64,000 nt of DNA from Escherichia coli (lineage in GTDB: Bacteria > Pseudomonadota > Gammaproteobacteria > Enterobacterales > Enterobacteriaceae): the NCBI RefSeq assembly GCF_024223415.1, contig NZ_CP100500.1. One strand, 5' to 3'. The translations under genes were made by a program, and so were the position numbers. Positions 1 through 10,493 of the stretch are shown piece after piece; positions within the stretch are counted from its first letter, which is position 1; the number at the start of each line of letters is the position of its first letter. The notes below the pieces were generated by a model. It was not told the DNA's origin and did not search any database. It saw nothing but the letters and a program-made list of their open reading frames with translations.

Positions 1-482
1 ATGCGATCGGCATGGCTGAGAACAAACAGAAAACGCGAGGGATCGGCACCTTCATTCAGTAAAAACTGATGCATGGCGATGTCGGCAGCATACGCACGTT
101 CATCAGCCCGCAGGATCCAGATAATCAGATCCAGTTCGGGCAGTAACTGACTGTAAAGTGCCCGGTATTCCTGATCATGCTGTGGTGTTTCGCCAGTGCC
201 GGGCAGATCGACCAGCGTCATTCTTCGTTCACCGGGCTGAAAGGTAAGACGATGAGCCTGACGGGTGCAGCCGTTCAGCGGATGCGTGGCGCAGACACGG
301 GACTGAAAAATGGCATTGCACAGGCTGCTTTTTCCGGCACCGGATTTACCCATAATGCCAATAACGGGTTCGTACTGAATGACGCTGCGAAGATGTTCAA
401 GGATTTTCTGGCGAATTTCTTCAGGAAGAAAGGTCAGATGTGACTTTACGTGTGCGGAGAGGGAAGAATGGCTGAATGACAT
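1..482 (-). CDS. YeeP/YfjP/YkfA-family GTPase, N-terminal part (3' end lies beyond window start)
   Basis: Minus-strand translation from ATG at 480-482: MSFSHSSLSAHVKSHLTFLPEEIRQKILEHLRSVIQYEPVIGIMGKSGAGKSSLCNAIF...LVDLPGTGE; P-loop GKSGAGKSS and DLPG G3 motif; family typical of CP4-type islands. Confidence 0.75.
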   Translation of the reverse strand, partial: MSFSHSSLSAHVKSHLTFLPEEIRQKILEHLRSVIQYEPVIGIMGKSGAGKSSLCNAIFQSRVCATHPLNGCTRQAHRLTFQPGERRMTLVDLPGTGETPQHDQEYRALYSQLLPELDLIIWILRADERAYAADIAMHQFLLNEGADPSRFLFVLSHADR

Positions 483-582
483 ACCGTTATCCTGTTGATT
501 TCACTGAACCGGATCACATTAATCCGGCCTATCAGTCAGGTAATATGGACGTGAAAATTTTTCCATTGACGGGAAGAAGAGT

Positions 583-1806
583 ATGGCTAAAAACAAAGGT
601 ATCTGTCGGAATAAAAAATGCAGCAATCCTGTTTCAGAATTTGATGAGGCAAATGCCCTGAGGTTATGTGATGATCATTATCAGTTATGGAAACGAAATA
701 AAGAGAACCGTCGGGTCAGGAATATTTGTCGTATAATCAGTAAATATGACAAAAGTCTGGACCGGGAGATATTTGACAGAGTAATAGATGCTGCAAGAAA
801 TCAAACGGGAAAGAGAATTGTTGAGGACGCAAAAATATTACATCAATTGCGCAATTCAAAGCAAGTAAGAAAAAGTCTTCATAATGGAGTACTCCGGTCA
901 CGGGAATGGCTCAATACACAGGAGTTACTGAGAAGAAAAAATATATCTGTTACAGGTGACTCATTTAAATCTTACATAAAGGATATTGTCAGATTATATT
1001 GCTATAAGTTTCTCTACAGCAGAGAATATCTTAATGAAAACGCATGCAAAAAACAATATCAGAGAGTTATTAACCCCAGAGAATTTAATGTTCCGATACT
1101 TCAACTTGAAGTTGCATGGATCAATAATAATTGCCGTTCAAGTGATTCAAGCTCTGATATTATCATCCTTCCCAGGATGATAAGAAGAATGGTTGTATTT
1201 AATGATACGAAGATAAATAAACAATTAGAGGAAATGTTGGGGGGGATAGCACGAAAAAAAGTCGCAGTAAGGAATAAAGGCGGTCTCTATACCAGAATAA
1301 AAAAAGAAAATGATTTTCGTTCTATGGATAGATTTATGGTGGAAATCGAAAATATCATAAGACCTGAAATATTTCCGACATCAATTTACCCGCCTTTTTC
1401 ACTTTCATTTATCGAGAGAGAATTGCCACTACTGAATCTGGCGCACTCACAGTACAAAAGAGCAATAAGTAAAAAAGTGGCGAATTCAATTTTTTATACT
1501 TTGCGAAAAACTCACGTGGCATTATGGCTGCATCTTGAAATGTTTGCTCTTGTGGCATTCATCAAACTGTATACAGGAAAAGGGTTTGAATTCATGAAAA
1601 ACATGTGTGTATTTATAGATTATGATAAAGGGATAATAAAATCCACGCATGAAGAACTGCTGAGTGAAATTAAGTGTAACATTCAGTTGAATTTAAAGGT
1701 GAATTCTGATAATTTTCCTGAATTAATAGAAGTATACAATTCATGCTTTAGTAAAAATATATTGTTGTATGATGTTCAGGATGATGGTTTTAAATGGTGT
1801 TTATGA
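583..1806 (+). CDS. hypothetical protein, 407 aa, AT-rich orphan; N-terminal Cys/His cluster (CRNKKCSNP...CDDH)
   Basis: Long uninterrupted ORF in a markedly AT-rich segment, divergent from the GTPase gene; no recognisable catalytic motif. Confidence 0.5.
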   Translation: MAKNKGICRNKKCSNPVSEFDEANALRLCDDHYQLWKRNKENRRVRNICRIISKYDKSLDREIFDRVIDAARNQTGKRIVEDAKILHQLRNSKQVRKSLHNGVLRSREWLNTQELLRRKNISVTGDSFKSYIKDIVRLYCYKFLYSREYLNENACKKQYQRVINPREFNVPILQLEVAWINNNCRSSDSSSDIIILPRMIRRMVVFNDTKINKQLEEMLGGIARKKVAVRNKGGLYTRIKKENDFRSMDRFMVEIENIIRPEIFPTSIYPPFSLSFIERELPLLNLAHSQYKRAISKKVANSIFYTLRKTHVALWLHLEMFALVAFIKLYTGKGFEFMKNMCVFIDYDKGIIKSTHEELLSEIKCNIQLNLKVNSDNFPELIEVYNSCFSKNILLYDVQDDGFKWCL

Positions 1807-3389
1807 TGTGAAAATATTAAATTTATATTACATTTTAATTATCGACAAAAAACACATAAAGAAATCTAAAGGGAATGAGCGTCAAATGAGCTGATATAGC
1901 GCCAGTTTGGTATGGTCATGTGATTTGATGATTAAAGCTTACGGATAATAACACTCCTCTGTGAGCCATATAAATGAGCATGCCATAATCGTCAGTTCAG
2001 AGATAAAACTGACTGAATGATCTTATGTTATAGTAAGCAGTGTTTACCGGATACGATGACTTATCTCTCTCACATCATATGGATTCACTTTCATGGGGTA
2101 AAGCGATGGGACTACAGACGCTGATTATGATGGTTTGCTGTAAAGTTAGCACAAGTTTTTGCTGTACAGAATACGGAGTAAGAAAAATAATTCCAGAGTA
2201 AATCTGCTCTGCTTTTGAACAGAAAAGATTCATGCTTACCGTGAAAAACTGAAACCAACATTCAGTCTGCATGGATGTCTTAAGATGTTGAGAATGTCGG
2301 ATATGGTATTATATACACCTTTTCCATTAGGTCCTTTTATGTTTTCATTAAGTCGTTTTGTATGTATTCCTCCAGTGATTCATTAGTGCCTGTTTACGCA
2401 TTTACACACTTTTCCCATTAATCTCCTTTAAATGTGTTTCATTACGCATTGCTGTACACATTTTTGAACTGATACACATCCAAGTTAGTAAACCTGTCAG
2501 TTCTGATTTTACGTTAACTAAATCAGTTTAATGCTGCTGTAAAACAATCCTTCCTGTTTAAGCAATCAATCTGCTATTCGATTTTACTGATGTGACGTTT
2601 AACCTTTCCTGAGCTTTGGTTGTTTGTGGTTTTTGGTTTGTGTTTCGACGTTAAGCTGAGAAAAGTATCTTTACGCTAAATCAACCCGAACTTTCCTGAG
2701 GTGATCTGACGTTCTTTTCGATGTGCTTACGACGATTCTGTTAAACGACTTTCTGGATGTTTTGATAACAATCAGATTGAGGCATTAACGATTCCTGACG
2801 TTTTGCTTTTTCATGTAAGGTCATTGTTTTCGTCATGATGTGGTTTTTCTTCTTGCATTGCGAAAGTGTGATGATTGGTTTTGGTTTTTTGATTCAGATG
2901 AGATTTACGTTATCGATGGTTAATCGTTTTTATGGTGAGTAGTGAAACGTAACATTTTCGGGATGAGAAAATCGATTCTGATGGTGATGGGGATGATCGT
3001 GTTACGGCGTTATCTGTAAACAGGTTTTAAACGTGTCATTCGCATTCGTGATTGAGTTGTGTGATTAAGCTGTAGGTTTTGGCGTTGTTGTTGATTTGCA
3101 TTGCCAGGAAGCGTTCTGGTTGCGTTTCTGGTGTTTTGTTCGAATGTTCTGTGGATCCTTTTCCCTTCAGGCTTTTCTCGTCGTCCATGTCGTTTTTAAA
3201 TCCATTCATGCTGTTGTTGCGTGTTTTGCTGCTGTGTGCAGGATTATCTTTTCGTTCCGGGATGGTTTGTTCCGTTTCAATCACTCTTAATCAGAGAGTT
3301 GTAGCATTGCTTAATGACATGATGCCGTAAAGTTTTACCGCGGTGATTAATGATGTGAAGTCAATCCAAATCAACGGAGATCTCTCATC

Positions 3390-4121
3390 ATGAATCAACC
3401 AATACACAATGCTTACTGGTTATCCCGTTTTGACAGCCTTCTCGACAGTGCCCTGTCGCAGCACCGTGCCGTCTCGTTAATCCGGGTGGATTTACGTTTC
3501 CCTGAGTATATGCCTGTCACCATCATGGATCCCGATCCGGATTCAGCGGTGATTTCTCGTTTTTTCGAATCCCTGAAAGCCAAAATCCAGGCTTACCAGC
3601 GGAAAAAACGACGTGCCAACAAGCGTGTGCGTGCAACCACTCTGCGTTATTTCTGGTGTCGGGAGTTTGGCAAGGAAAAAGGCAGGAAACATTATCACGT
3701 GATATTGCTGCTCAACAAAGATACCTGGTGCTCGCCAGGGGATTTCAGCGAACCATCTTCGCTGGCGACGATGATCCTGGAGGCATGGTGCAGCGCCCTG
3801 CATCTTGAGGCCTGGCAGGGTAATGGACTGGTTCATTTTTCCAGGCGGACGCCTTTCCGTAAACCGACATCATCTGATGCTCGCCCTTCTTCCGATGATA
3901 CGCCTTTGTCGGGTGGATGTTCTGATACCAGGAAGGCTTCAGACAAAAAGCCGGGTGAAGCCGCTGTTCTCTGGATCAAGCGTGGTGATGTGGCAGCGAT
4001 GCAGAAAGCCCGGAAAAGAGCCCGTTATCTCGTGAAAAATCAAACGAAGCAGCATAATGGTTCCGGTCAACGTAATTATGGTTGCAGCCGTGGGCCGGGG
4101 CGTCTGCTGGATGGCAGGTGA
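3390..4121 (+). CDS. inovirus Gp2-family protein (YagK/YfjJ-like)
   Basis: 243 aa ORF MNQPIHNAYWLSRFDSLLDSAL...RVDLRFPEY...HYHVILLLNKD, pattern of YfjJ/YagK island proteins; preceded by conserved upstream motif. Confidence 0.65.
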   Translation: MNQPIHNAYWLSRFDSLLDSALSQHRAVSLIRVDLRFPEYMPVTIMDPDPDSAVISRFFESLKAKIQAYQRKKRRANKRVRATTLRYFWCREFGKEKGRKHYHVILLLNKDTWCSPGDFSEPSSLATMILEAWCSALHLEAWQGNGLVHFSRRTPFRKPTSSDARPSSDDTPLSGGCSDTRKASDKKPGEAAVLWIKRGDVAAMQKARKRARYLVKNQTKQHNGSGQRNYGCSRGPGRLLDGR

Positions 4122-4631
4122 AGTCTGTAAAACGGTATCCGGTGCCAGGGGGGGGATATCACGGTAAGGGCGTCAGCCAACGTCTTTCGCTCGTATTCTG
4201 ATAACCCGTCCTGAAGTCATGTATCTGCTTCCATTCTCATGTTCATATTTCTCTTACGCTTTCACTGTCTGTCATCGGAAGTACCGATTTATTTTGGTGC
4301 TGCGCACTTACGGCCATTCACGGAAGAGGATTGTGGTGAACAGTAGGAGTCTGGCTGCTGGCGAGGGAAGGTTCAGGACTGGTATGGGGTTTAGTGCTGG
4401 AGGATGACTTTGAATCCCGGATTGACCAGTGAGGGGGCAGTGAGAGGATGCTCTGGTGTAACAGGTCTGGATTACAAAATATAAAACCGGTTGTACACTC
4501 GTAACGGGTAAAAGGATACGGGCAATAACACGTGGTACCCGGTGAGACTGGCTCTTGTATCACATTACCGGGAATATTCTGGCAGGTGAAATGTTCTGAT
4601 AAGAATCATCCTGAGGGAGGATACAACGGAT

Positions 4632-5084
4632 ATGAACGTTATTGACAGCCGCATTCGTGATGTGAAATTTGGTGAAAATGTGAAAGTCGTCATGCCAGTA
4701 AACCTCTATGAATGTGAACTGGGGGATGATGTTTTTATCGGTCCCTTTGTGGAAATACAGAAGGGATGCATCATTGGCAACCGGAGCCGAATTCAGTCCC
4801 ACAGTTTCATCTGTGAGAACGTCATTTTAGGTGATGCCTGTTTCATCGGTCATGGCGTAACTTTTCCTAATGATCTGTTTAAGTGTGGTGGTCCCGATAC
4901 CTCTGCAGAAAGCTGGATACGCATCGTATTAGGTAACACTGTAACAGTGGGTAGTGGAGCGACCATTTTAACAACAGAAATTTGCAGTGGAGCTGTGATT
5001 GGTGCTGGTAGTGTGGTTACAAAGCCCGTGCTGGTAAAAGGCGTGTATGCGGGTAATCCGGCCAGACTTTTGAGAACGCTTTAA
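4632..5084 (+). CDS. hexapeptide-repeat (left-handed beta-helix) acyl/acetyltransferase
   Basis: 150 aa with repeated [LIV]-G-x-x-x-x hexapeptides (VFIGPFVEI, CIIGNRSRI, VILGDACFIGHGV, VLGNTVTVGSGATI, AVIGAGSVV). Confidence 0.7.
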   Translation: MNVIDSRIRDVKFGENVKVVMPVNLYECELGDDVFIGPFVEIQKGCIIGNRSRIQSHSFICENVILGDACFIGHGVTFPNDLFKCGGPDTSAESWIRIVLGNTVTVGSGATILTTEICSGAVIGAGSVVTKPVLVKGVYAGNPARLLRTL

Positions 5085-5335
5085 TTATTGAATCCAATAT
5101 TAAACCAGACAGACAGTAAACATAATACTGTTCCGGATATCGCTTGCCGCAGGAACCTCCTTAACATTCAGGAAAATAAAGCTTTTATTGCTGCTATGTA
5201 CCATAAGAGACAGAAGTAATTGATTTACCAGTATTACACCTGTTGAAGCTATGGTTATTCACCTTTTATTTTTTGAGCAGCGTATTTATACTTCCCGGAG
5301 CATTGTTTAAATATAATCGCCCGGGATTGATTCGT

Positions 5336-6241
5336 ATGGCTCTTGAACAGGAAATCGCAAACCTTGTAAACGAGTTTGTCGCGGCTGGTCGTCCATCCTG
5401 TCGTGACCAGACCTTTGATGAACGCCGTGCCGGATATATCGCAAGTACTGCTCTGGCCGGCGATACAGAAACCCGCGTAAACATCAGTGATGTGATTATT
5501 GACGATGTTTTATTGCGCATATTTTCGCCTTTAAACGATGATGGGGTGTTATCCGCAATTGTCTATTATCATGGTGGCTGTTTTGTCAGTGGTGGTTTTG
5601 TAACCCATGATAATCAGTTGCGACAGCTTGCTTTCCTGAGCGGTTGTCGTGTCATTGCTGTACAATATCGATTAACGCCGGAACATATTTATCCTGCGGC
5701 ACATGACGATGCTGAACATGCCGCTAATATTGTGTGGCAACACGCAGAAATGTTGAAAGTTGATCGCAACAGAATAACGTTAATGGGGGATAGCGCTGGG
5801 GGACATCTTGCACTGATAACAGCACTGCGGGTTAAAAACATCGGTCAGTGGTTACCGCGAAAATTAATACTTATTTACCCTATGCTGGATGCCACAGCAT
5901 CATGTGATAGTTACAAATTAAACGGTAGTGACTATGTGCTGACAGCAGACACGTTTCTTAGTGGTTATGAGGCTTATTTTTCCGGTCAGGATTTAGAACA
6001 TCCGGAAGTGAGTCCATTATTCAGGAATGATTTCAATGGGTTACCACCTGTTCATGTCATCACAGCGGAATATGACCCATTACGCGATGAAGGTGAGGAA
6101 CTGTTTTCCCGTATGATTCAACAAGGAGTAAAGTGTACCGCCCAGCGTTATCTCGGTGTCATTCACGGTTTTTTCCAGCTTGGCGGCATTAGCCAGACAG
6201 CCCGTAATCTGATGCAGGATATTTGTGGGATTGTTAAATAA
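5336..6241 (+). CDS. alpha/beta-hydrolase esterase/lipase (family IV, HSL-like)
   Basis: HGGC/HGGG oxyanion motif (YYHGGCF) and GDSAGG nucleophile elbow; start placed at MALEQE, the 5243 start adds a hydrophobic extension and is uncertain. Confidence 0.7.
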   Translation: MALEQEIANLVNEFVAAGRPSCRDQTFDERRAGYIASTALAGDTETRVNISDVIIDDVLLRIFSPLNDDGVLSAIVYYHGGCFVSGGFVTHDNQLRQLAFLSGCRVIAVQYRLTPEHIYPAAHDDAEHAANIVWQHAEMLKVDRNRITLMGDSAGGHLALITALRVKNIGQWLPRKLILIYPMLDATASCDSYKLNGSDYVLTADTFLSGYEAYFSGQDLEHPEVSPLFRNDFNGLPPVHVITAEYDPLRDEGEELFSRMIQQGVKCTAQRYLGVIHGFFQLGGISQTARNLMQDICGIVK

Positions 6242-6487
6242 TCACGTAACAAGCAGCTACAGGTAAATTAGCTGAGCATGCATCCATCATTTGTCGCTGC
6301 GATGCCAGACTTCCGGATGCTCATATGTTGTTTTACTTTTGTCAGCATAAATGCTGCGTCGGGACTGGTGAATGGAGATAAGCCATTTTATTATCGACGT
6401 CAGAGAACATACTCACAATGTCGGTATGTTTCTGAAATTAAGGGTAAGTTTTGCGCTGATTACAGTATGCGAAGGAGATCTGGCACA

Positions 6488-8080
6488 ATGAATCCCGCTT
6501 ATATGCAATCCCCCCATTTCCCGGCAGATTTAACATACAGATTATTTCCTCGTAAGCTTGCGTATCTCATTGACGACTTATATGAAAGTACCCAACTTCC
6601 GCTGGATCTCATTTTTAATACTGTACTGGCAACGCTCTCACTCTCCTGTCAGTCATTGGTTGACGTTGTTCATCCTCACACCAACATGCCGGAACCCTGC
6701 TCACTTTATCTGTTGACAATCGCAGAGCCAGGCGCGGGAAAAACAACGATAAACAGACTGGTGATGAACCCCTGTTACGACTTTGCCGATCGACTCATTC
6801 AACAATACGAAGAGAGAAACAAAGATTATAAAACTGAACTACAGATCTGGAATACCCGACAGAAAGCTCTTTCTGCCAGTTTAAGAAAGGCTATTAACCG
6901 GGGGTATCCGGGAGAACAGGAAGAAGAGGCGCTGCGTAATCACGAAAGAAATAAACCGACACGTCCGGTTCGACCGAATTTTATCTATGAAGATGTTTCA
7001 CTTAAAGCGCTTGTGGAAGGACTCAACGAGCATCCGGAGGCGGGAGTTATTTCTGATGAAGCGGTAACTTTTTTCAGAAGCTATCTGAAAAATAGTCCTG
7101 GTCTGTTGAATAAAGCATGGAGTGGACAACCGTTTGATTTTGGACGGGCTGACGAGAAATATCATATCACTCCACGCCTGACATTTTCGCTAATGTCCCA
7201 ACCGGATGTTTTTACGGCTTATATAAATAAAAATGATGTACTGGCCAGGGGAAGCGGATTTCTTTCCCGGTTTCTGTTCAGTCAGGTTGTAAGTTCTTCC
7301 TGGATACGTGATTATACGAGAGGTGAGTTCAGAACAATACCAACCCTGGAGAATTTTCATAAAAAGATTAACGGATTTCTGTTAAGCCATAACATTAATT
7401 CCCCCGGCATGAGCACCGAAAGGAAGACATTAAAACTTGCGAAGAAAGCGTTGGGGGAGTGGCAGGAAAACCAGAGTAAGATTGAAAGCAAAGCGCTTGC
7501 AGGAGGGGAGTGGGAACACATCAGAGATATTGTTCTGAAAGCAGGTTCTAATATACTGAGGATAGCGGGTTTATTCACCTTCTATGGCAATAAAGATGCT
7601 GAGGAAATTGAATCAATTGCGCTTTTTAACGCCATGCATCTCATGGACTGGTATCTGGAGGAGGCAAGCGCAATATTTTATCCCATGTCTGAGCGACGCC
7701 AGTTTGAGCAGGATGCCTGTGAACTGTATGCATGGATTATGACCCGAATCAGGCAGAATAACTGGTGTGCTATCAGGAAAACAGATATTGAAAGATATGG
7801 TCCCAATCGACTGAGAAGAGCAGAAAAGCTTACACCTGTACTCAATCAGTTAATTGCTCAGAATTATTTCTGTATCATCAAAATGCGCTCGCATCAGGCA
7901 CTTTATGTTTCTGTTCGTAACAATAATGGTTACCTCCTTCCTTTCGGCACAATGTCTTACGAACCGTTTGATGTTGTACCCTCCTTGTATAGTCATAATG
8001 CGAAAATATATCCCGTTAATATTCCACCGGAATTAATCCAGTCATTTGCGTTACCTTTTTCAGCCTATAACTTATTCTGA
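6488..8080 (+). CDS. DUF3987-type protein (YfjI-like, primase C-terminal-like) with P-loop-like AEPGAGKTT
   Basis: ORF with IAEPGAGKTT motif; family recognised by similarity to YfjI of CP4-57-type islands; start at MNPAYMQ chosen over upstream 6278 start. Confidence 0.6.
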   Translation: MNPAYMQSPHFPADLTYRLFPRKLAYLIDDLYESTQLPLDLIFNTVLATLSLSCQSLVDVVHPHTNMPEPCSLYLLTIAEPGAGKTTINRLVMNPCYDFADRLIQQYEERNKDYKTELQIWNTRQKALSASLRKAINRGYPGEQEEEALRNHERNKPTRPVRPNFIYEDVSLKALVEGLNEHPEAGVISDEAVTFFRSYLKNSPGLLNKAWSGQPFDFGRADEKYHITPRLTFSLMSQPDVFTAYINKNDVLARGSGFLSRFLFSQVVSSSWIRDYTRGEFRTIPTLENFHKKINGFLLSHNINSPGMSTERKTLKLAKKALGEWQENQSKIESKALAGGEWEHIRDIVLKAGSNILRIAGLFTFYGNKDAEEIESIALFNAMHLMDWYLEEASAIFYPMSERRQFEQDACELYAWIMTRIRQNNWCAIRKTDIERYGPNRLRRAEKLTPVLNQLIAQNYFCIIKMRSHQALYVSVRNNNGYLLPFGTMSYEPFDVVPSLYSHNAKIYPVNIPPELIQSFALPFSAYNLF

Positions 8081-8860
8081 AATAAACCAACACAGATGAA
8101 ACGAAAAAAAACAACATTCATTCGAAGGTTGGTGGTAAGGAGTTTGCATATCCTGCATCTGTGCAAATATTCACCAGTTATGGGGCGCGAACGAAAATTT
8201 CTCTGAAAAAATCGCTACGGTAGCAACAGTAGCAGCACATGCACCATGTCTGTTATTTGATTTTGTTTTCATAATGACCTGTTGTCAAAGCTGATTGAAT
8301 ACAGGAGTGTGCGCACTGGTGGAAGAGTGGCTTTCGTTTTTGGTTATTCGAAAGAAAATCGAAATATTGTTTTTAACATAGCTGAAGCTAATCATATAAC
8401 CATATTTTTTGAGTTTTTATATATAACTTTGTTTGATTCTTGTCGTAATGAGTGCTGGCGTATATGACGATGTCGCTCTCTTTCTGAATAACGAAAGGTT
8501 ATCAGTCTTTTACTGACAAGAGATGCTGTTCAGGTTTCAATGGGAGATTGAAGAAAAACGATTTGATATTTTCCGTGAGAGAATGTCTTGTCAGGTTCAT
8601 ATTCATAACGGATAATTTCTTATTTTCACTCATCAGACATGGATAATTTTAATTTAGGTTTATTACTATAATTAGTATCTGTTCCTTTATTTTTATCCAT
8701 CTATCCCTTTATTTTTCATCTATCTATCCTTTTATTATTAGTATCTGTATTTTTATTATTGGCATCTGTCTATTTATTTTTATCATTCTCTCCTCTCTGT
8801 CTTTACTCTCATTGCTCTTACTCTCATTCTGTTATTTCTACTCGTGTTATCGTGTTCACT

Positions 8861-8940
8861 CTATCACTCTATCACTCTATCACTCTATCACTCTATCACT
8901 CTATCACTCTATCACTCTATCACTCTATCACTCTATCACT
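8861..8940. repeat. octanucleotide microsatellite (CTATCACT) x10 perfect copies, with degenerate CT-rich flanks 8681-8950
   Basis: Counted directly: 10 head-to-tail copies of ctatcact from 8861 to 8940, 11th copy degenerate (ctatccat). Confidence 0.95.
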
Positions 8941-9689
8941 CTATCCATCTCTCAATCATAACGATTGTCACTCATATGATACTCAGCCATGTTATTTTCT
9001 ACTGCTCTGCTGAGCTTATCTGTCTGTTCTCATCTTCAGTGAAACAGCACCTGATTTTACTCTTATCCATCATGAACTGTCTTTGTTCAACGATGATGGT
9101 ATGTCTGATATGTGTTAACCATTTTGATGGGTATCGTTGATTATCCGATGGTTAAGCTTCGATAAGGTTATCCATAGAACAGTGTGGGGTAAGCAACATG
9201 ATCCCTGATGATATTTGTTCCGTGTTGTCTTGTTGTTTAAGCGACAGGAAATATGTCAATGGCATGTTTTATTCTGCTGCCGTGAGCCATGCATGTTCTG
9301 AAGAACAGATTGAATGAGCGCATGTGAGTTTATTACGTTGGCCTTGTACACGTTTTTTTAGAACCACTGAGAGCAAGTTTGTAGTTTATGATGCTATTGG
9401 TCGTAATATGTTTCTTGAACTTTTGATCGTGGGTTTTTATCTCGTATTTTTCAGCATTTCTCGGTGTTGTATTGCGTCGATATTTTCTTTATTCCCGTTA
9501 ATATCATCTCGTCAGTGTCCATTCCTTTCATCACAATGCGTATCGTTAATAATCTGTTGTATCCATCCGCCTACAGCATGCCTGATAAATACCGTCTGTC
9601 AGTTATTACCGTTTTAGATCTGATTATGAGCGAAGGTATTCATTCGCTGACAGAACTTAAAACGTCATTAACTTACAGGAGTTATCAGC

Positions 9690-10259
9690 ATGCCTCAGTC
9701 TTACACACCAGACTGGTTTTTTACCGCCTTACTTGACCATCACATCGATCAAATGATGGCTCGCTATTCCTGTCTGCGGGCCTTACGGATGGATTTCTTC
9801 TACAGGAAAGAGACGCCTGATTTCTTACAACCTGATCACCGCTGGCTTGAATTGCAGTTGCGTATGCTGCTGGACCAGGTTGAACGGTTTGAAAATATGG
9901 TTGGTTTCTTCTGGGTGATTGAATGGACGGCTGATCATGGTTTTCATGCGCATGTGGTTTTCTGGATCGATCGTCAGAGGGTGAAAAAATATATCCCTTT
10001 GCGGAGCGGATAACCGAATGCTGGCGGGCTATTACGTATAACTGTGGTTCGGCGCACCGCTGTACATACCAGCCGCATTATGCATACAACATCAACATTC
10101 CCGTGCGCCACAACGATCCTGAAAGCATCGATAATATTCGCGGTGCCCTGCATTATCTGGCGAAAGAAGAGCAAAAAGACGGACTGTGTGCATACGGCTG
10201 CAGCGAAGTGCCTGAACGTCCTGCTGCAGGGCGACCACGCAAGCTTCACGTCTGAAGCT
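9690..10259 (+). pseudogene. inovirus Gp2-family gene, frameshifted
   Basis: N-terminal 107 aa ORF (…FWVIEWTADHGFHAHVVFWIDRQ…) stops at 10013; family-like continuation (ITYNCGSAHRCTYQPHYAYNINIPV...ALHYLAKEEQ) runs in a different frame to 10259. Confidence 0.55.
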
Positions 10260-10493
10260 TAAACCCTGAACCTCCGCACCTGGAAACAAGCCATCGGTAA
10301 AAACTTACCGCATTGCTTAATGATGTGAACCGAAGTCAACGGAGTTCATTCACCCTGAATGTTCTTTCCTGATATTCCCGCTCAGCGTCGGTTCTTCACC
10401 TGTTCCATCAACCTCATCCGCAGCCTGTAACCCGTCAGCCCATCCATCCCCGGGCAGGACGCGTTGTGGGCTGCGCATAACGGAGCATATCCT

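Follow-up and report, generated by a model that had tools for sequence, protein, structure and literature searches.

Genes of the YagK/YfjJ family ("inovirus Gp2") are part of the conserved core of P4/CP4-type islands, which carry virulence, resistance and anti-phage cargo in Escherichia coli and other Enterobacterales. To our knowledge, no function has been described for a YagK/YfjJ protein or for its control region. The closest described relatives are yagK (in CP4-6) and yfjJ (in CP4-57) of E. coli K-12. In genomic systematic evolution of ligands by exponential enrichment (SELEX), the yagL-yagK spacer was bound by the RpoD holoenzyme and was also marked as H-NS-bound, and Shimada et al. predicted in it a promoter with the hexamers TTTAGA-16-TATAAT (PMC3946193). 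Holoenzymes carrying minor sigma factors bound this spacer as well (PMC5493296). Here we analyzed the spacer at positions 1810-3389 of a 64-kb window, the whole stretch of E. coli chromosome under study, in which a P4/CP4-type island adjoins setC. The spacer serves a plus-strand gene of the same family (3390-4121) coding for an HUH-type, Rep-like protein of 243 amino acids, called Gp2 here. The original prediction was that this interval could be either a structured non-coding RNA or a curved, nucleoid-protein-bound regulatory region.

The flagged interval is composite and not one unit. With about even confidence, we take 2187-3389 to be the enlarged control region of the Gp2 gene of a P4/CP4-type island together with its untranslated leader, and 1810-2186 to be the tail of a neighboring variable cassette. 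Like the spacer, the regions upstream of K-12 yagK and yfjJ precede a gene of the same family and have an E1-like element followed by an E2 core (both described below); yfjJ also has an ACACATC-type motif after E2. Unlike the spacer, they are only 153-272 nt long and lack a G+T-rich segment. Nothing is alignable beyond the motifs, and the K-12 proteins are about 30% identical to Gp2.

The E1-E2 core and its surroundings

E2 (2288-2317, plus strand) is a predicted sigma-70-type promoter directed toward Gp2, with a predicted start near 2322. In the window it reads TTGAGA-ATGTCGG-ATATGGTATTATATACAC (2288-2318), made up of TTGAGA (2288-2293), a conserved box ATGTCGG (2294-2300) and the -10 candidates TGgTATTAT, TATATA and TATACA (2305-2317). 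To follow it between strains, we collected 39 distinct full-length copies of the spacer (1049-1212 nt) from genomes and a metagenome pattern scan; at 92% identity they fall into 12 clusters, and the least similar pair is 76% identical. The hexamers, either TTGAGA-N16-TATATA or TTGAGA-N18-TATACA with a TGn extended -10, are conserved in 39 of the 39 copies. Across lineages the consensus is TGTC(G/T)G-N3-4-(T/A)RGTA-N-TAT, located 81-108 nt downstream of E1 in every lineage, and the TRGTAnTAT core is kept in all of them. A regular expression for E2 matched only at E2 positions in the 278 kb searched, though as it was written after the sites had been seen, this uniqueness is not an independent test.

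E1 marks the left edge of the conserved module (2187-2198, plus strand; ATAATTCCAGAG, consensus ATAAYTCCAGAG(T)). The exact 13-mer is present in 52 loci, those of Providencia and loci L097 and L098 among them, each time as a single copy on the Gp2 strand. Variants differing at one to three bases are present in Brenneria, L099 and L101, and variants also occur at K-12 yagK and yfjJ. In Providencia E1 is a perfect palindrome, ATAACTC-CA-GAGTTAT, while no conserved stem surrounds it in E. coli. E1 is a candidate operator, a candidate leftward extended -10 (the minus strand reads CTCTGGAATTAT) or a candidate HUH nick site.

The bipartite E1/E2 arrangement is upstream of every YagK/YfjJ (Gp2) gene examined, including those of Providencia and Brenneria and the K-12 pair. 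Relatives of Gp2 with over 80% identity are confined to E. coli; the next are at 35-43% identity in Providencia, Brenneria, Morganellaceae and metagenomic lineages. In these distant relatives Gp2 is usually directly followed by an AlpA-family gene and preceded by a gene-free region of 400-750 nt (1356 nt in L098), divergent from a YeeP-like GTPase gene or from a hypothetical gene of about 320 amino acids. Only E1 and E2 are recognizable across those upstream regions, with E1 always ahead of E2 and both on the Gp2 strand. In K-12, E1-like and E2 elements lie in the upstream regions of yagK and yfjJ (L004, 4095-4234, minus strand; L003, 5412-5530). The yagK counterpart of E2, TTTAGA-TGTTGGATAGGTATTA-TATAAT, coincides exactly with the promoter predicted in PMC3946193. 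The SELEX result is the only experimental anchor and concerns this homologous K-12 element rather than the sequence in the window. The 130-nt core, kept from K-12 to Providencia beside a widespread HUH gene, is a useful by-product of the analysis, as is the placing of the module between two cargo hot spots (below). A scan of viral contigs for E1-N(70-100)-GTAWTAT returned 96 hits, none beside a Gp2-family gene; they were rejected as chance matches expected from the size of the database. The literature on yfjJ, yagK, inovirus Gp2, Esr41 and CP4-like islands gave nothing on the spacer or the E1/E2 pair, and Esr41 was dropped since it lies elsewhere, in OI-43.

The E2 box invites comparison with the binding elements of two antiterminators, ABE of Pseudomonas aeruginosa AlpA and QBE of lambda Q. 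As in those systems, a conserved box (ATGTCGG, or ATGTCTG) sits between -35 and -10 ahead of a long leader, and in other genera an AlpA-family gene is in the same operon. The spacer box differs from the GGGACG of ABE, however, and the antiterminator systems have terminator-containing leaders whereas intrinsic terminators are not in excess in the spacer. With only 68-78 amino acids, the AlpA-type proteins of the islands also consist of a helix-turn-helix module alone, whereas P. aeruginosa AlpA has an extra N-terminal segment that forms a ring in the RNA exit channel.

Right after E2 there is an array of degenerate short direct repeats (2312-2500, plus strand) with units such as TATACAC-R-TATTTTnACTAAGTGTTT, which are probable protein-binding sites. 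The array is 170-289 nt long and its copy number varies between clades. Other lineages have their own arrays at the same place, built from (C)TATGTGTTT in Providencia and AGAGAGTRTATRGAAC in L098, and an ACACATC-like motif recurs in L097 and K-12 yfjJ. The ATACAC part of the unit resembles the DnaA R2 box, and near-matches to the DnaA box are enriched in the array (13 per kb versus 2 per kb). As exact consensus boxes are present in only four of the 39 copies, a DnaA-dependent origin was dropped as a candidate.

At the other end, immediately before Gp2, is a nearly invariant proximal block (3321-3389, plus strand) with a mean pairwise divergence of 3.3%, compared to 8.9% at four-fold degenerate sites of Gp2. 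A second promoter-like pair, TTGCTT (3306-3311)-N15-TAAAGT (3327-3332), begins just upstream of the block and is present in 39 of the 39 copies. Its -10 is overlapped by an operator-like palindrome, GTAAA-GT-TTTAC (3326-3337), and further on are the motif TTAATGATGTGAA (3346-3358) and a ribosome-binding site, GGAG (3375-3378). A further copy of this operator and ribosome-binding-site cassette, at 10283-10345, precedes another Gp2-like gene that is very divergent, and the sharing of the cassette (3326-3378 and 10283-10345) suggests one regulator for both genes.

That third Gp2-like gene (region 10283-11069, ATG at 10494, end at 11069) has no Pfam match, and its HUH has decayed to E-Y-H. Ahead of it lies GGTAA-AAAC-TTACC plus TTAATGATGTGAA..GTCAACGGAG, the cassette already seen at 3326-3378, and an open reading frame (ORF) with an AlpA domain is found after it at 10975-11367.

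Extent of the module and its G+T-rich middle

By megablast, 1877 of the 5426 complete E. coli genomes match the spacer, in at most seven places per genome; the genomic copies number 2911. The order of genes is constant: the GTPase gene pointing left and then, to the right, one or more variable genes, the spacer, Gp2 and cargo. The full-length interval, with at least 80% of the query covered, was found in only 53 genomes. In other variants homology begins at about query position 360-375, or window 2170-2185, and 1810-2186 therefore belongs to the left variable cassette. It is the 3' flank of that cassette, goes with a 407-amino-acid gene and lies outside the conserved Gp2 module. Conservation of the flagged interval thus holds for 2187-3389; 1810-2186 is confined to one cassette variant, while the sequence from about 2170 to 3389 is common to all island variants. 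On the left, the alternatives are one plus-strand gene (of 407 or 377 amino acids, neither of known function) or two genes, one annotated as RepB-like. On the right, homology stops 25-100 nt past the Gp2 stop codon, and the cargo beyond it differs: a restriction endonuclease, a TIR protein, YfjI, insertion sequence elements or, in the window, an acetyltransferase and an esterase. The homology limits on both sides therefore define a conserved unit from 2187 to about 4146-4221 with variable DNA on either side, as is seen in the window (583-1806 and 4122-8080) and in loci L002 and L005-L018. The E1-to-Gp2 module of about 2 kb has the look of an anchor with a cargo hot spot on either side.

A protein search of genome contigs returned only two loci, both E. 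coli-like; there was no match in the phage collection, and the plasmid matches were four E. coli records only. L093 (3591-4756) contains a decayed copy in which the GTPase gene, the 407-amino-acid gene and Gp2 are all broken. With a Gp2 of 60% identity it had been considered as an intermediate lineage, which was rejected in favor of a decayed E. coli-type copy. Its spacer has a 1.16-kb insertion between window positions 2902 and 3203, showing that in a dead module the spacer can be interrupted in its middle.

The plus strand had been described as persistently G+T-rich, which is accurate for about 2250-3320 but not for 1810-2250. G+T content is 49.6% at 1810-2250, 54.7% at 2250-2560 and 65.5% at 2560-3300, where the bases are 41% T, 24% G, 19% A and 15% C. 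No 750-nt window in the 64 kb exceeds this 65.5% (mean 0.509, standard deviation 0.032, z about 4.6). The skew is common to all 39 homologs, with a mean G+T of 0.53 just after E2 that rises to 0.70-0.75 at 3080-3260 and falls abruptly to 0.50 at 3321. The region from 2500 to 3320 is an E. coli-specific, G+T-rich and C-poor segment, non-coding and unstructured, that could be leader or filler. Between E2 and the ATG, other lineages have about 150-340 nt and L098 has 830 nt, compared to about 1070 nt in E. coli, so these roughly 800 nt are an expansion of the E. coli lineage.

The G+T-rich kilobase that drew attention is the least constrained part of the spacer. Mean pairwise divergence is 13.7% for the whole spacer and 8.9% at four-fold degenerate sites of Gp2; mosaic recombination is evident, the reference genome having an identical spacer and a Gp2 only 95% identical, and this comparison is therefore approximate. 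By segment, divergence is 14.9% at 2181-2560, 16.1% at 2560-2870, 10.6% at 2871-3170, 18.5% at 3171-3320 and 3.3% at 3321-3389. Only the last 69 nt are clearly constrained. The G+T-rich middle (10.6-18.5%) changes as fast as or faster than the four-fold sites, drifting at a roughly neutral rate. A regulatory region rather than junk, as originally proposed, is thus borne out for the conserved cis-elements at both ends (2187-2317 and the last 69 nt) and not for the nearly neutral 800 nt between them. By parsimony the substitution fluxes are balanced (C>T 111 and T>C 111; A>T 44 and T>A 45), the absolute counts being inflated by recombination, while per-site rates are asymmetric (C>T 1.23 versus G>A 0.89; A>G 0.78 versus T>C 0.44). 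The skew is therefore at equilibrium, a maintained state and not a decaying relic. Third-position skew of neighboring genes was discarded as a test for regional mutation bias, being confounded by codon usage.

The absence of a convincing ORF in 1810-3389 was confirmed. The longest ORFs code for 82-83 amino acids, and none is conserved across 13 or 39 homologs, every candidate being broken by stops in other clades. Variable columns are spread evenly over the three codon phases, with no 3-nt periodicity of substitutions, and most indels are not multiples of three. No conserved small ORF preceded by a Shine-Dalgarno sequence was found in the spacer. A pseudogene was rejected as well, as a six-frame Pfam scan of the spacer was empty and left no relic. 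On the minus strand, an ORF of 82 amino acids (3036-3284) is annotated by PGAP as hypothetical protein WP_000573215.1. It has no Pfam match, meets stops or frame-breaking indels elsewhere, and has 57-amino-acid versions in other strains. Because no ORF is conserved across the homologs, this is probably a spurious call inside a non-coding leader, and one annotated gene can be removed.

One tract inside the leader, the hexanucleotide microsatellite (GGTGAT)n, varies in length, with 2-3 units at 2978-2990 of the window and about nine in strain NDM6 (L008, about 3400-3460). The k-mer GCATTGC occurs four times and was set aside as it is not conserved. Internal repeats of the spacer are not clearly above shuffles, and a possible internal duplication of the middle part was rejected on the same ground.

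Competing explanations

A structured non-coding RNA, such as a P4-type immunity RNA or another riboregulator, is highly improbable and was essentially refuted by computation. P4-type elements use a leader-encoded RNA for immunity, and the spacer is likewise a long, conserved, gene-free stretch with a promoter at its left end, in keeping with the untranslated leader (PLE leader, CI RNA, seqA/seqB/seqC) before the replication genes of such elements. Yet it matches no Rfam family, C4/CI-type included: cmscan of 1-8000 at E values up to 1 gave only PhotoRC-I inside Gp2, at 19.9 bits against a gathering score of 45, a chance match. Complementary repeats like seqA, seqB and seqC were looked for in the spacer and not found. 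Folding in twenty 150-nt windows did not differ from composition-matched shuffles (mean z -0.07 on both strands), and RNAalifold on 12 clade representatives resembled column shuffles, z ranging from -2.3 to +2.6 without a trend. A minus-strand RNA would be C/A-rich and almost unstructured, at about -10 kcal/mol per 150 nt. A terminator-like hairpin (3107-3129) has one G-C to A-U double change but was rejected, as it is broken in three sequence types. Plus-strand terminator-like sites are not in excess (0.92 versus 0.81 in shuffles). The several short inverted repeats noticed earlier exist, but at chance level, and only trivial 6-bp stems are conserved as hairpins in the DNA. It is also quite improbable that the spacer is mainly a platform on which H-NS, or Hha/H-NS, nucleates and spreads to silence the Gp2 operon, possibly via bent DNA. 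The region is 60-63% A+T within a horizontally acquired island and has 29 T-tracts of at least 4 nt (versus six A-tracts); a Hha-like gene adjoins Gp2 and AlpA in the SRL island. The listing of the homologous K-12 yagL-yagK spacer as H-NS-bound (PMC3946193) is indirect evidence for the nucleoid-protein part of the original prediction; neither curvature nor the H-NS motif gave support. A/T tracts are unphased at 10-11 bp (z(10.5) = -0.9; the strongest peak does not surpass 34% of random placements). The high-affinity motif (TCGATAAATT-like), allowing up to two mismatches, has 1-2 matches compared to 2.2-3.0 in shuffles. Such a platform leaves both the strand asymmetry and the G excess unexplained, and it is compatible with a leader rather than an alternative to it.

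Functionless filler at about 2500-3320 is unlikely though plausible; it would be what is left of an old insertion that separated Gp2 from its ancestral promoter, kept only for want of a deletion so far and with a skew from mutation bias alone. Divergence at or above that of the four-fold sites, frequent indels (1049 to 1212 nt in length), the copy that tolerates 1.16 kb of inserted DNA, the absence of the segment from other genera and the negative motif, structure and coding tests all fit it. On the other hand, although bacteria tend to lose DNA by deletion, about 1 kb has been kept in 12 clades differing by up to 24% and in roughly one E. coli genome in three. The block 2871-3140 is column-conserved at 92-97%, the skew is maintained rather than decaying, and no protein relic points to an ancestral gene. 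Decidedly unlikely, in our estimate, is a rolling-circle-type origin or nick site for Gp2 in the left of the spacer, with the nick at E1, the repeats as iterons and the skew as a single-stranded footprint. Gp2 matches YagK_YfjJ_C (1.5e-37) and also REP_ORF2-G2P (1.2e-9); in its family the HUH motif (H101, H103) is invariant, and Y213, K216 and K220, which include a Tyr-x-x-Lys motif, are nearly so. Origins of rolling-circle plasmids have a nic/bind layout. A 12-nt E1 kept down to about 35% protein identity, beside repeats that change with the protein, is such a layout; so is the plan of the double-strand origins of these plasmids and of the Ff phage region upstream of gene II, where non-coding DNA with a T-rich plus strand directly precedes an HUH initiator and a family-wide short sequence lies next to lineage-specific repeats. 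The perfect palindrome of Providencia E1 and the linked DUF3987/YfjI helicase-like gene are further points in its favor. A G+T-rich strand, too, is a classic mark of single-stranded exposure, with C>T and A>G as the asymmetry seen here. However, the spacer has no conserved hairpins, in particular none surrounding E1 in E. coli, and no similarity to known nick sequences. The skew is lowest beside E1 and highest 900 nt away, whereas strand displacement starting from an E1 nick would give the reverse. Near-matches to the DnaA box are enriched without conservation of exact boxes, and the literature search gave no report of these islands replicating. E1 and E2 fit operator plus promoter equally well, and the spacer with the yagK counterpart of E2 binds RNA polymerase. 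The chance is small that E1 is the cleavage site of Gp2 and the array its binding site, making E1-to-Gp2 a self-contained nicking or replication unit of P4/CP4-type islands. If so, the unit could drive rolling-circle replication of an excised island or HUH-mediated exchange of flanking cargo, and the skew would be the mutational footprint of recurrent single-strandedness.

For a control region with a long leader, the explanation we prefer, RNA polymerase would start at E2, near 2322, and transcribe about 1.07 kb rightward into Gp2. An island protein (Gp2 or an AlpA-type helix-turn-helix protein), H-NS or both may silence the operon by acting on E1, the repeats and the proximal palindrome. With 15% C, 24% G and no terminator excess, the leader RNA would be a poor Rho substrate and the C/A-rich, unstructured antisense RNA a good one, so that transcription would be favored in one direction. 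The skew could be kept by strand-asymmetric substitution, as for the non-template strand of a transcribed but untranslated stretch (deamination). Gp2 may additionally be driven from the second, promoter-like pair at the proximal block.

Several points weigh against this explanation. Start site, direction and 1.07-kb read-through are inferences, and the yagK hexamers are a prediction by the SELEX authors, not mapped. The AT-rich -10 region of E2 also reads as a minus-strand -10, so a leftward promoter is possible. A leader of more than 1 kb would be unusual for E. coli, and with a conserved promoter-like site so close to Gp2 (3306-3332) the distal promoter could be irrelevant to that gene. Transcription-linked mutation does not predict the left-to-right rise in skew, and the other long leader, the 830 nt of L098, has no skew. 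The approximate nature of the comparison with four-fold sites counts here as well. A promoter region with a long leader is an already known kind of thing, and if the spacer is only that, the finding is an ordinary one. The module is now testable, with a 130-nt E1 and E2 core, a middle that is mostly lineage-specific leader or filler, and cargo hot spots on both sides. How the islands switch on the Gp2/AlpA operon is the question that E1 and E2, as targets, address.

Neighboring genes and minor features

The spacer is 100% identical to that of NZ_CM196105.1, where it lies within an island beside nlpA-yicL-setC, on the selC side. To its left is the conserved end of a P4/CP4-type island, coding for a YeeP-like GTPase, a helix-turn-helix regulator, DUF932, an antirestriction protein, a RadC/JAB protein, a YeeU/CbtA toxin-antitoxin pair and DUF4942; the window starts inside the GTPase gene, which is on the minus strand. 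The gene of 407 amino acids (583-1806, plus strand) has no Pfam match. A perfect 7-bp stem (GTCAGTT/AACTGAC) with a 9-nt loop is found at 1990-2012, in the cassette-specific part, 185 nt past the stop codon of that gene and without a following T-run. It may be a 3'-end structure of the 407-amino-acid gene. To the right of Gp2, on the plus strand, are genes for a hexapeptide acetyltransferase, an esterase and a DUF3987/YfjI protein.

Gp2 itself has an insertion of about 40 amino acids rich in Ser, Pro and Asp (residues about 152-194, window 3843-3971) in the E. coli subfamily, absent from all its relatives in other genera and from YagK and YfjJ. No Chi site is present in the spacer; in some clades a site matching at 7 of 8 positions comes closest. 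Another spacer of about 1.6 kb (8080-9690), ORF-poor and T-rich and with no sequence shared with the first, lies upstream of a second REP_ORF2-G2P-like gene (9690 to about 10255) that is apparently frameshifted. This second spacer contains an 8-nt microsatellite, (CACTCTAT)n, at about 8852-8945.

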